Virus record (IMG/VR): IMGVR_UViG_2526164646_000008
Coordinates: 1-32,339 of that record
Length of the DNA stretch: 32,339 nucleotides
Origin: a virus
Taxonomy: Duplodnaviria; Heunggongvirae; Uroviricota; Caudoviricetes
Direction: 5' to 3' (one strand)
Below the pieces are notes generated by a model that was not told where the DNA came from, did no database searches, and saw only the letters and a program-made list of their open reading frames with translations. The translations under genes were made by a program, and so were the position numbers. Positions 20,134 through 21,245 of this stretch are shown here, piece after piece. Position 1 is the first letter of the stretch. Each line of letters begins with the position of its first letter.

Positions 20134-21245
20134 ATGGCGCTTTTTCAACGAGCAATAAACACACAGGCCTATCTAAAAGCAGGAATTATGGGGTTTGCTG
20201 GCGACGGCAAAACCTACACAGCAAGCGAACTGGCTATTGGTCTGGTAATGCTTATGCGGCAACGGGGAATTGAAGCTGGTAACCGCCCGGTAATGTTTCT
20301 GGACACAGAAACAGGCTCTGACTGGGTTAAACCCCGCTTTGATGCGGAAAATATCGAATTATTTACGGCAAAAACCCGCTCGTTTGTTGATCTGCTTGAA
20401 GCCATTAATGAAGCGGAAAGCAGCGGTTCCGTAATGATCATCGACTCCATCAGTCACTTCTGGACCGGATTATGCGACGAGTATGCCAGACGCCGAAACC
20501 GTAAACGAGGACTGGAATTTTCAGACTGGGCGTGGCTCAAACAGGAGTGGCGACGCTTTACCGATCGATTTGTTAACAGTCAGGCGCACATTATTATGTG
20601 CGGGCGTGCAGGATATGAGTATGACTTTTTCGAAGGTGATGATGGCAAACGCCAGTTGGCAAAAACCGGTATAAAAATGAAAGCAGAAACAGAAACCGGT
20701 TATGAACCCTCCATCCGGATCCAGATGGAGAAGCAAATGAACATAGAAACCGGTCAGGTGTGGCGCACCGCCAGAATACTAAAAGATCGCTCCACCCGTA
20801 TTGATGGACAGGTATTTTCAAACCCAACATTTAAAAACTTTCTTCCTCATATCGAGTCTCTTAACCTGGGAGGTGAACACCCCGGCATCGATACCTCACG
20901 GGATAACAGTGAATTATTTGCCAACGACGGTACACCGACATGGCTAAAAGAAAAGCGTGCAAAAGAAATCGCACTTGATGAAATTAACTTGATGAAATTA
21001 TCGAGTTGCTCAACAAGCACCATGGGGGCACCAGTAACGACGCCAAACGCGCAAAAGCTGATTTGCTGGAAAAAACATTCACCTCCCGCTCATGGGAAAG
21101 AATCAAAGGTATGGACTGGCCGACAATCAAAGCTGGTCGTAATGCACTATGGATTGAACTGGAAGGCGTTGAATATGCATTCCCGGATCCACAAACACAA
21201 AACGAAACGCAACAAGCAGGATACGATGAGAATATTCCGGTGTAA
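20134..21245 (+). pseudogene. Phage P-loop ATPase (RecA-like/AAA-type; Walker A GFAGDGKTY, Walker B VMIIDSISH), frameshifted by a 14-bp tandem duplication
   Basis: Track ORFs 20134..21294 and 21006..21245 are two frames of one gene; removing one copy of acttgatgaaatta (20973..21000) restores a single about 366-aa ORF ending 21245. Confidence 0.6.
20973..21000 (+). repeat. Perfect 14-bp tandem duplication acttgatgaaatta x2
   Basis: 20973..20986 identical to 20987..21000. Confidence 0.9.

Follow-up and report, generated by a model that had tools for sequence, protein, structure and literature searches.

A 14-bp tandem duplication in a predicted RecA-superfamily ATPase gene of a decaying Shigella flexneri prophage remnant

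The stretch of DNA analyzed here (the window; 32,339 nucleotides) is Shigella flexneri contig AGRC01000037.1 of assembly GCA_000281795.1, and in it a perfect 14-bp tandem duplication interrupts the gene of a phage-type P-loop ATPase. The locus raises the question of whether this duplication is an on/off switch, the reading preferred by an earlier note on the same DNA, or a step in the decay of the gene. We find that the evidence points to ordinary gene decay in an IS-riddled prophage remnant and not to an on/off switch.

Structure of the duplication and its effect on the ATPase gene

The 14-bp unit ACTTGATGAAATTA stands twice in tandem on the plus strand, with copy 1 at 20973..20986 and copy 2 at 20987..21000, and does not occur again elsewhere in the window. 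The back-to-back arrangement described in the earlier note is thereby confirmed by the window sequence itself, by Tandem Repeats Finder (period 14, 2.0 copies and 100% matches at 20973-21000) and by alignment with two E. coli orthologous loci, which shows a 14-column gap and is otherwise identical across 181 bp. The stretch of copy 1 is also missing from 10 S. flexneri one-copy genomes. Both ends of the repeat are sharp (C at 20972 versus A at 20986; T at 21001 versus A at 20987). Since the flanking bases do not prolong the repeat, there are exactly two copies, and comparison of the bases on either side of 20973-21000 revealed no flanking microhomology. By chance, about 1.6e-4 perfect tandem duplications with a period of at least 14 are expected in 32 kb of the window's composition.

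An artefact of sequencing or assembly in the draft contig can be set aside almost completely. The draft does carry private 1-bp deletions relative to all closed genomes (at 18261, 24797/8 and 25308/9), which suggest homopolymer errors, but the frameshifted ORF at 20134-21294 recurs without change in 10 assemblies, among them closed PacBio, NCTC and hybrid genomes, and therefore the duplication is no assembly artefact of this draft. The same 28 bp were recovered by different projects and platforms, and they are also found in additional genomes bearing a 5' deletion of the gene, so that we regard the artefact as refuted. The 14-base tandem duplication is confirmed as real.

The duplication lies in the ATPase gene at 20134..21245 (plus strand; 365 aa when repaired) and, as had been claimed, it frameshifts this gene. 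Copy 1 comprises the third base of A280, the codons of L281, D282, E283 and I284, and the first base of the next codon; from copy 2 on, the frame is shifted by +2. The duplication leaves residues 1-284, which precede it, in frame, and the native C-terminus (residues 285-365 and the stop codon) lies in the other frame at 21000-21245. The present-day ORF (20134..21294, plus strand) encodes 386 aa, consisting of the 284 native residues and 102 out-of-frame residues in exchange for 81 conserved C-terminal ones. Its exact product (P0001) matched in 35 index blocks, with 10 closed or large assemblies among them. The stop codon of this ORF (TAA at 21292-21294) is situated 29 bp within the IS element that starts at 21266. 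The frameshifted tail does end in an IS629-like element, as stated previously, but it is ordinary out-of-frame sequence and its supposed low complexity was not borne out.

Deleting one copy in silico joins the two ORFs, as had been proposed, and restores a P-loop protein reading ...EIALDEIIELLNKHH..., with a size of 365 aa instead of the roughly 366 aa given earlier. This repaired protein (P0016) is identical to the intact S. flexneri allele, and its exact sequence is present in at least 1000 contigs of the protein collection and in 1603 index blocks. The second ORF (21006..21245, plus strand; P0031) has a TTG start, no evident Shine-Dalgarno match in the inspected upstream sequence, and 79 aa that equal native residues 287-365. 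It is a by-product of the frameshift; gene callers also report it in genomes where other lesions disrupt the ATPase gene. Reading the sequence by eye, we did not see a slippery heptamer for programmed ribosomal frameshifting at the site.

Family, predicted fold and conservation of the intact protein

The repaired protein matches PF13479 (AAA_24) over residues 14-187 (52.2 bits versus a cut-off of 27, E = 8.9e-14), a domain carried by all listed homologues. Its Walker A motif reads G20-F-A-G-D-G-K-T27 and its Walker B motif V-M-I-I-D104, with G23, D24, G25, K26, T27 and D104 invariant across 22 aligned homologues. The best PHROG is phrog_1366 (E = 2.6e-79), a family of unknown function, and the Sak4-like phrog_124 matches more weakly over residues 9-180 (E = 6.9e-9). 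A PDB sequence search with the repaired protein gave no match at E up to 1, NCBIfam holds no family for the ATPase or for Gam, and a megablast of the ATPase gene against the phage GenBank collection gave no match.

In the AF2 model of the repaired protein (mean pLDDT of 78.5), residues 1-245, which are still encoded by the two-copy allele, form a RecA-like core, and the helices between residues 269 and 339 reach block-mean pLDDT values of about 83-93. Foldseek against the PDB returned KaiC C1 domains (E of about 2e-5 to 2e-4, target-normalized TM 0.43-0.49) and RecA 8trg_A (E = 1.4e-4), and the fold matches in BFVD are phage AAA and “RecA-like recombinase” proteins, with values down to 2e-13. 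The predicted structure fits a RecA/KaiC/RadB-type core and hence a RecA superfamily fold.

The 22 aligned homologues come from Gamma- and Betaproteobacteria (60-99% amino acid identity), and every one of them is single-copy with no gap at the site. E. coli orthologues with 98.5% nucleotide identity also have one copy, and from these two observations together we take the one-copy state to be ancestral; that intact homologues are single-copy supports the earlier note's account of the lesion. The duplication falls inside the almost invariant motif KEIALDEI, in the middle of a conserved helix. Beyond the site, K300, E308, R314, S315, W316, R318, R331, W335, L338, Y343 and P348 are invariant in the same 22 homologues. 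Together with the confidently modeled helices at 269-339, these residues suggest that the C-terminal domain matters.

The Sak4 family consists of RecA-like single-strand-annealing proteins (Lopes 2010, PMC2896510; Hutinet 2018, PMC5928155). They are core-only RecA homologues of about 226 aa, and their genes are often accompanied by a phage ssb gene (PMC5928155); Sak4 of HK620 (HkaL) has 226 aa. The window protein and Sak4 alike are P-loop ATPases built on a RecA/RadB-type core; temperate phages encode them in their early-left recombination module, and both fall within AAA_24 or Sak4-like profiles. A possible further likeness to the ssb-bearing Sak4 phages is seen in some distant homologues of the window protein, those of the Achromobacter-type prophages L035 and L036, which are followed directly by an SSB gene (PF00436). 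No SSB gene stands beside the ATPase gene in L038-L040, nor in E. coli and Shigella, which have gam, ATPase and DUF1187 in this order. In contrast to the core-only Sak4 proteins, the window protein has 365 aa and a conserved C-terminal helical domain, which places it outside the core-only RecA architecture of about 220-250 aa without additional domains. Its gene neighbors differ as well, a lambda-type gam and the N-terminal fragment of recE standing in place of SSB and Abc2. Direct comparison with HK620 Sak4 was not significant (BLASTP E = 0.14; profile-sequence hhalign E = 0.17), and since neither the pairwise nor the profile comparison reached significance, we do not assign the protein to the Sak4 family.

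From its sequence, the window ATPase appears related to the Sak4 single-strand-annealing recombinases, with a putative function of this kind. The previous guess of a RecA-like recombination ATPase fits PF13479, the weaker Sak4-like PHROG and the predicted RecA/KaiC-like fold, as well as the context of a prophage recombination module and the SSB gene directly 3' in distant homologues. The intact gene represents a widespread, well conserved and uncharacterized branch of AAA_24, with 365 aa and a C-terminal helical domain. As it fills the strand-annealing slot of the lambdoid module (recE-N, gam, ATPase), it is possibly worth testing as a recombinase.

The prophage remnant and copy number across genomes

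The locus is a Rac-like cryptic prophage remnant that adjoins sitABCD, with the order recE-N, gam, ATPase, xis, int. The genes recE, gam, xis and int are all cut by IS elements, and the operon is broken by IS600, IS911, an IS629-like element and IS1. The recE N-terminal fragment (PF06630; 15753..17306, plus strand; 96% identity with the E. coli locus, whose recE is likewise partial in the PGAP annotation) is cut by IS600 (17307..18581, minus strand; 99.1% to “IS3-like element IS600 family transposase”). IS600 reaches right up to the start codon of gam and has replaced about 500 bp of the recE-gam interval. The 5' part of the lambda-type gam follows (PF06064; 18582..18832, plus strand; 99.6% to E. 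coli gam, whose intact protein matches the Gam family at 7.9e-56), and the 3' end of gam is occupied by IS911 (18833..20081, plus strand; 99.1% to “IS3-like element IS911 family transposase”), whose insertion duplicated the 3-bp target CTG. Element-end and junction analysis places the gam 3' tail (…ETIAHHQVDIDLED, then stop) at 20082..20128 on the plus strand. What had been listed as an unknown gene fragment upstream of the ATPase gene is indeed a fragment, and its identity is this tail of the lambda-type gam, split off by IS911. A promoter scan upstream of the gene found no promoter-like site beyond chance between IS911 and the ATPase ATG. On the other side, an IS629-like element of the IS3 family (21266..22571, plus strand; “IS3 family transposase” in PGAP, placed by its junctions) begins 20 bp past the native stop. 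It has taken the place of about 350 bp, the DUF1187 gene among them. It is present in one-copy S. flexneri genomes as well.

Only one- and two-copy states were found among the genomes compared at the site, and no three-copy alleles. The IS911 insertion in gam (gam::IS911) is present in 9 of the 10 two-copy genomes and in none of the one-copy genomes. Further markers unite these nine genomes: a derived C at 24157 (T in the E. coli outgroup), the base T at 27778, an indel of 30 bp at 24530-24559 and a SNP block in the tail-fibre region. All sampled one-copy genomes (n = 10) are on the other haplotype, and the 2a strains 301 and 2457T are examples of one-copy strains; the E. coli loci do not align at position 14336 and give no outgroup state there. 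The gam::IS911 lineage includes strains Y394 (serotype 1c) and 93-3063 (Y1). Of 12 genomes with this insertion, the site persists in 11, always with two copies, whereas in the twelfth (L025) the locus is lost or rearranged; a return to one copy was observed in none. Several two-copy descendants (L026, L032, L063 with four similar places, L064 and L069) have lost window positions 20082-20904 (823 bp at the 5' end of the gene, with both Walker motifs) and keep both copies of the unit. Within the same lineage, an 11-bp repeat at 24527 varies in copy number, and therefore the assemblies resolve small copy-number differences in this region.

The duplication was not found outside S. flexneri in partial S. 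sonnei, E. coli and S. boydii proteins of the same 90% clusters, in which the frameshift signature EINLMK was looked for; all of these proteins are one-copy (IIEL) or end before the site. The rest of the ATPase gene is undamaged in the 10 two-copy genomes. Elsewhere the gene carries an IS at 20939-20943 (L061, L066, L068), an IS66 at 20950-20957 (2a strain FDAARGOS_689) or a truncation at 20877 (L065, L067), or its ORF is in pieces (L062). The same gene has been knocked out independently in at least four other ways in other Shigella and E. coli lineages.

One genome departs from the pattern. FC906, a serotype 2a strain (CP037996; PMC6836418, where its IS and pseudogene counts are given), has the same duplication and an intact gam, and all of its markers, the derived G at 23912 among them, are those of the one-copy haplotype. 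Two copies on a one-copy haplotype require a second transition, a reversion or a transfer, and a single origin with clonal descent does not account for all data.

Decay, switching and recurrence

We consider it highly probable that the 14-bp duplication is lineage-specific and that the resulting pseudogene of a RecA-superfamily ATPase was fixed by drift during IS-driven decay of the prophage. The ORF broken by the lesion is conserved among orthologues and intact in them, the neighboring genes are disrupted too, and the ATPase gene has been inactivated independently in other genomes. The locus would have been damaged before the duplication arose, since one-copy strains also carry IS600, the IS629-like element and IS1. 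IS911 would have inserted into gam afterwards, and in many descendants a later IS911-adjacent deletion may have taken the 5' 823 bp of the ATPase gene. Replication slippage or a template-switch error without microhomology is an uncertain origin for the duplication. An imperfect 8-bp stem (ACTTGATG / TATCGAGT) was considered as a hairpin or quasi-palindrome that could have caused it and was rejected, since shuffled sequence folds at least about as well (z = -0.35 and -0.72). IS-driven pseudogenization and prophage decay are known from Shigella genomes, and the locus resembles these cases as a cryptic prophage with four IS interruptions (IS600, IS911, an IS629-like element and IS1), with IS-adjacent deletions, lineage-specific frameshifts and repeated inactivation of one gene. 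The sole unusual point is FC906, through which the same 14-bp duplication appears on two backgrounds.

A reversible contingency switch, in which slipped-strand mispairing between one and two copies toggles the Sak4-like ATPase and selection keeps both states, is very improbable. A perfect tandem repeat can drop a copy by slippage, the remaining gene is undamaged in 10 two-copy genomes, the repaired protein equals the intact S. flexneri allele, and the second background of FC906 calls for at least two transitions or a transfer. However, the two-copy state has been inherited unchanged, in 11 of 11 site-retaining genomes, by a gam::IS911 lineage with several other derived changes, in which the 11-bp repeat at 24527 does vary; no reversion was seen after gam::IS911, and many of these genomes subsequently lost the gene's 5' end. 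Only two states were found, with no three-copy alleles, the gene lies in an operon cut by four IS elements with no evident promoter, and sister lineages carry many other irreversible lesions in it. Contingency loci such as those of Haemophilus and Neisseria have many copies of 1-7 nt units that vary between close relatives and within cultures. The window shares with them a tandem repeat inside coding sequence, with the reading frame depending on the number of copies, but differs in having one or two copies of a 14-nt unit that is stable in its lineage while the gene still decays. FC906 is the single exception to constancy among close relatives, and the 5' deletions, the four IS elements and the lack of a promoter-like site beyond chance argue against a gene that is otherwise maintained. 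That the toggle flipped repeatedly in S. flexneri (in FC906, and with some “intact” alleles being revertants) and was selected to switch a Sak4-like recombinase is, if anything, even harder to credit. Copy loss by slippage between the perfect 14-mers would be mechanistically possible, with no sign of frequency or selection. As to the reversibility proposed in the earlier note, the FC906 duplication on a one-copy haplotype allows reversal on an evolutionary timescale, but the preference for a switch over decay was not borne out.

Retained function, either by the RecA-like core alone or by a split protein (284 residues plus the 79-aa ORF), seems scarcely plausible to us. While characterized Sak4 proteins are core-only with about 226 aa (PMC5928155), residues 1-245 model as such a core and an ORF for residues 287-365 exists, the C-terminal domain with its invariant residues is conserved across proteobacterial homologues, 102 out-of-frame residues are tacked onto the core, and the short ORF has a TTG start and no Shine-Dalgarno match. 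Moreover, descendants have lost the 5' part with both Walker motifs. We infer that the 386-aa product is non-functional.

We tentatively entertain the possibility, without favoring it, that the duplication is a rare, non-adaptive event that recurred or reverted, having arisen twice, or once early in S. flexneri with precise deletion in some lineages; such an event would be a refinement of the decay reading and does not conflict with it. FC906 shares the derived G at 23912 and all other markers with the one-copy strains and yet has two copies, and two perfect 14-mers offer an easy mechanism for precise deletion. On the other hand, the support comes from one genome, a second identical duplication without microhomology is improbable a priori, and the hairpin potential of the site is no better than shuffled (z = -0.35). 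A short recombination tract from a two-copy donor, or a mix-up of the FC906 strain or assembly, would look alike, and there are no SNPs within 20082-21265 able to reveal a conversion tract.

With decay as the preferred reading, two proteins deposited for these S. flexneri genomes, an “AAA family ATPase” of 386 aa and a “hypothetical protein” of 79 aa, are pieces of one frameshifted pseudogene, and the significance beyond annotation is small. The 14-bp duplication together with gam::IS911 is a handy marker of the lineage of Y394 and 93-3063, and the discordance of FC906 serves as a modest warning that homoplasy can occur in short tandem duplications.

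Duplication and reading frame

The 14-bp unit ACTTGATGAAATTA occurs twice back to back in the window, at 20973-20986 and 20987-21000 (...AAATCGC ACTTGATGAAATTA ACTTGATGAAATTA TCGAG...), and nowhere else in it. Tandem Repeats Finder reported a period of 14, 2.0 copies and 100% matches, in line with the perfect duplication described in an earlier note on this sequence. About 1.6e-4 perfect tandem duplications of period at least 14 are expected for the size and composition of the window. Two E. coli loci aligned to the window with a clean 14-column gap and were otherwise identical over 181 bp. 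Neither flank continues the repeat, which leaves no microhomology at its borders, and the folding of an imperfect 8-bp hairpin there does not exceed that of shuffled sequence. The duplication may have arisen by replication slippage or template switching.

The first base of the unit is the third base of codon A280, and the site is now translated as ...A L D E I N L M K L S S C.... The current ORF (20134-21294) encodes 284 native and 102 out-of-frame residues and ends at a TAA (21292-21294) located 29 bp inside an IS629-like element. The 386-aa product is on record for Shigella flexneri, for example on AGRC01000037.1 (assembly GCA_000281795.1). Removal of one copy restores a single protein of 365 aa (about 366 aa in the earlier note), and the frameshifted tail enters the IS629 end, both as the earlier note had proposed; the tail is, however, ordinary out-of-frame sequence and not low-complexity as described there. 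The 14-bp insertion results in a +2 frameshift and the loss of 81 conserved residues, with the stop supplied by the IS, and the product would be non-functional.

The exact 365-aa sequence was found on at least 1000 contigs (1603 index blocks of the protein collection, 60 with contigs >1 Mb), named Shigella AAA family ATPase, versus 35 index blocks (10 with contigs >1 Mb) for the frameshifted product. A homology search with the repaired protein yielded 1975 proteins at E ≤1e-5. The best 120 of these are mostly about 340-380 aa long, apart from a few partial and a few longer proteins (up to 508 aa), and the species-named ones derive from Enterobacteriaceae, Pseudomonas, Achromobacter, Candidimonas, Roseateles, Aquabacterium and others. 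We aligned 22 of them (60-99% identity), a comparison of the kind suggested in the earlier note, and none of the 22 carries an insertion at the duplication site. The site lies within a nearly invariant K-E-I-A-L-D-E-I motif, and K300, E308, R314, S315, W316, R318, R331, W335, L338, Y343 and P348, all 3' of it, are invariant. By these comparisons the duplication is a derived state, and it breaks an ORF that is otherwise conserved.

At residues 195, 241 and 249 the repaired S. flexneri protein has R, S and P where the allele of E. coli, S. sonnei and S. boydii has L, F and L. Across the family alignment, L at 195 is close to invariant. Mixtures of the two alleles at these positions occur in some partial proteins of S. 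flexneri.

Identity of the ATPase and its prophage context

The profile search with the repaired protein, also suggested earlier, matched PF13479 (AAA_24) in Pfam with 52.2 bits against a cut-off of 27. PHROGs returned phrog_1366 (unknown function, 2.6e-79) and, for residues 9-180, phrog_124 ('Sak4-like ssDNA annealing protein', 6.9e-9); neither NCBIfam nor a PDB sequence search gave a match. Two motifs do not vary among the 22 homologues, Walker A at residues 20-27 (GFAGDGKT) and Walker B with its last residue at 104 (VMIID). The AlphaFold2 model (mean pLDDT 78.5) comprises an alpha/beta core (residues 1-245) and, modelled with confidence, a C-terminal domain of four helices (269-339), with the duplication site in the middle of helix 269-292. 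Foldseek matched KaiC C1 domains and RecA among solved structures, and phage AAA-domain proteins, 'RecA-like recombinase' and 'DNA recombinase' among viral models. In Achromobacter-type prophages an SSB gene lies immediately 3' of the homologue, in a module between early genes and integrase; the SSB gene was absent in two other homologue contexts examined.

[quoted passage not shown] HkaL has 226 aa, whereas the window protein has 365 aa and the additional four-helix domain. The comparison of both was not significant (E = 0.14 by BLASTP, 0.17 by hhalign), and therefore we do not call the protein a tested member of the Sak4 family. We call it a RecA-superfamily AAA_24 ATPase, Sak4-related, which occupies the position of the strand-annealing gene in a lambdoid recombination module. 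The structural and functional reading in the earlier note was largely right: its RecA-like ATPase agrees with PF13479 and with the RecA and KaiC fold matches, and its role in recombination is a reasonable prediction.

Among 5426 complete E. coli genomes the gene is confined to 10, with 98.5% identity over 1113 bp (the query minus 14). PGAP annotates this E. coli locus, a Rac-like prophage, with kilR/ydaE-type genes, a partial RecE exonuclease without C-terminus, a 98-aa Gam host-nuclease inhibitor, the 365-aa 'AAA family ATPase' WP_001173292.1, DUF1187, excisionase and integrase. BLAST of the window onto this locus, IS identification and reading of the junctions gave the following order: recE fragment (15753-17306), IS600 (17307-18581, minus strand), 5' part of gam (18582-18832; PF06064, lambda-type Gam by Pfam), IS911 (18833-20081, with a 3-bp target duplication CTG), gam tail (20082-20128), ATPase gene (20134-21245), IS629-like element (21266-22571), xis region (22572-22917), IS1 (22918-23685), int remnant (23684-24426) and sitABCD-like transporter genes from about 24810. 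The "unknown gene fragment" that the earlier note placed upstream is indeed a fragment, which this map identifies as the tail of a lambda-type gam.

Only an N-terminal piece of recE, without the nuclease part, is also found in the intact E. coli relatives (window 15753-17306; E. coli locus L001, 5781-9098), followed directly by lambda-type gam and the ATPase gene with no recT there, a mosaic recombination module. RecE-like proteins without nuclease domain and of unknown role are mentioned in a 2025 survey (PMC12315714). Several genomes of the window's lineage (e.g., loci L003 and L010) lack about 147-155 bp of the IS629-like element (window 21916-22062). The transposase orfB of the element is split into several ORFs in the window, so this copy is probably defective. 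In some one-copy genomes (L015, L019, L054, L057) the element is interrupted, roughly 2.5-4 kb 3' of the ATPase gene, by a gene for a group II intron-type reverse transcriptase (RVT_1 + GIIM, about 505 aa). Most S. flexneri genomes have an ipaH-type effector gene (LRR_TTSS + NEL, 571 aa) at the upstream edge of the prophage remnant, some 9-10 kb 5' of the ATPase gene in L042, L046 and L051-L053; the window has an IS911 copy (10027-11231) at the corresponding place. Compared with the other genomes, the window has private 1-bp deletions at 18261, 24797/24798 and 25308/25309 (the last also in L049), which homopolymer errors of the draft may explain. Through the deletion at 25308 the sitA-like gene, 304 aa in most other genomes, reads as two ORFs (24810-25406 and 25355-25699).

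Copy number, decay and the discordant strain FC906

We fetched ten loci with the 386-aa and ten with the 365-aa product; all of the former had two copies of the 14-mer and all of the latter one. The sampled one-copy genomes include G1663 (2a), 1205 (4c), 2013C-3749 (3b), AR-0425 (2a) and AR-0424 (Y). Both groups share IS600 beside recE, IS1 in the xis-int region and the IS629-like element 20 bp past the native stop, indicating that the duplication arose in an already damaged prophage. Nine of the ten two-copy genomes have further markers in common: an IS911 copy in gam, C at 24157 (T in the E. coli outgroup), T at 27778, an additional 30 bp at 24530-24559 and some 30 SNPs clustered at 29897-30372. 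According to a strain table (PMC9455713), Y394 (serotype 1c, CP020753) and 93-3063 (Y1, CP026768) belong to this lineage.

The earlier note had suggested that the duplication acts as an on/off switch. A search for the Gam-IS911 fusion ORF, a marker of the later event, gave 12 genomes (10 shown, 2 similar), with no one-copy revertant among them: the site is kept in 11, all with two copies, and the twelfth (L025) is rearranged beyond IS911. The assemblies can resolve such variation, since an 11-bp repeat at 24527 varies within the lineage (one unit more in L047, the L009 genome), unlike the 14-bp repeat. Furthermore, the gene continues to decay. An IS911-adjacent deletion took out 20082-20904 in L026 and L032 (823 bp, with the start codon and both Walker motifs), leaving both 14-mers, and the same loss was found in L063 (plus four similar places), L064 and L069. 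Elsewhere the gene is knocked out by an IS at 20939-20943 (L061, L066, L068) or an IS66-family element at 20950-20957 (FDAARGOS_689, serotype 2a, CP054886), truncated at 20877 (L065, L067) or in pieces (L062). Stable copies, later deletions, other knockouts and the resolution control together mark the gene as a pseudogene of a decaying prophage rather than a maintained phase-variable gene, and do not support the switch; a selected, reversible toggle of a Sak4-like recombinase is very improbable. We conclude that this is an ordinary lineage-specific frameshift pseudogene, of a kind already known. IS600, the IS629-like element and IS1 would have preceded the duplication, followed by IS911 in gam and the IS911-adjacent deletion, with fixation probably by drift in a clonal pathogen lineage.

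One genome is discordant. FC906 (CP037996; L008 and L046), an Indian clinical isolate of serotype 2a with a combined MinION and Ion Torrent assembly (PMC6836418), has two copies of the 14-mer and an intact gam. It agrees with the one-copy genomes at every marker defining the two-copy lineage and shares with most of them the derived G at 23912 (relative to the E. coli outgroup), which on these markers places it outside that lineage. That the identical duplication arose twice is a priori unlikely at a site without microhomology, whereas an older duplication that was precisely deleted in some lineages is mechanistically easy. Transfer of a short tract is possible and would be undetectable, because there are no SNPs within 20082-21265; an error in the record is possible as well. 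FC906 leaves room for reversibility on an evolutionary timescale, as one genome against consistent stability and decay. It also carries an extra insertion of about 1246 bp inside its IS600 copy (equivalent to window 18043-18045, 3-bp junction overlap), absent from the other sampled genomes.

Between the int remnant and the sitA-like gene, at 24527-24559, lie 2.3 tandem copies of the 11-bp unit CTTTTTTGCCC, a stretch that is 30 bp longer in the two-copy lineage than in FC906 and all one-copy genomes. The SNPs at 29897-30372 (about 30 in 475 bp, two-copy lineage versus all other sampled S. flexneri) lie in the prophage tail-fibre region. DUF4376 genes are present twice in these loci, and the block looks like a single recombination or gene-conversion event between tail-fibre paralogues.
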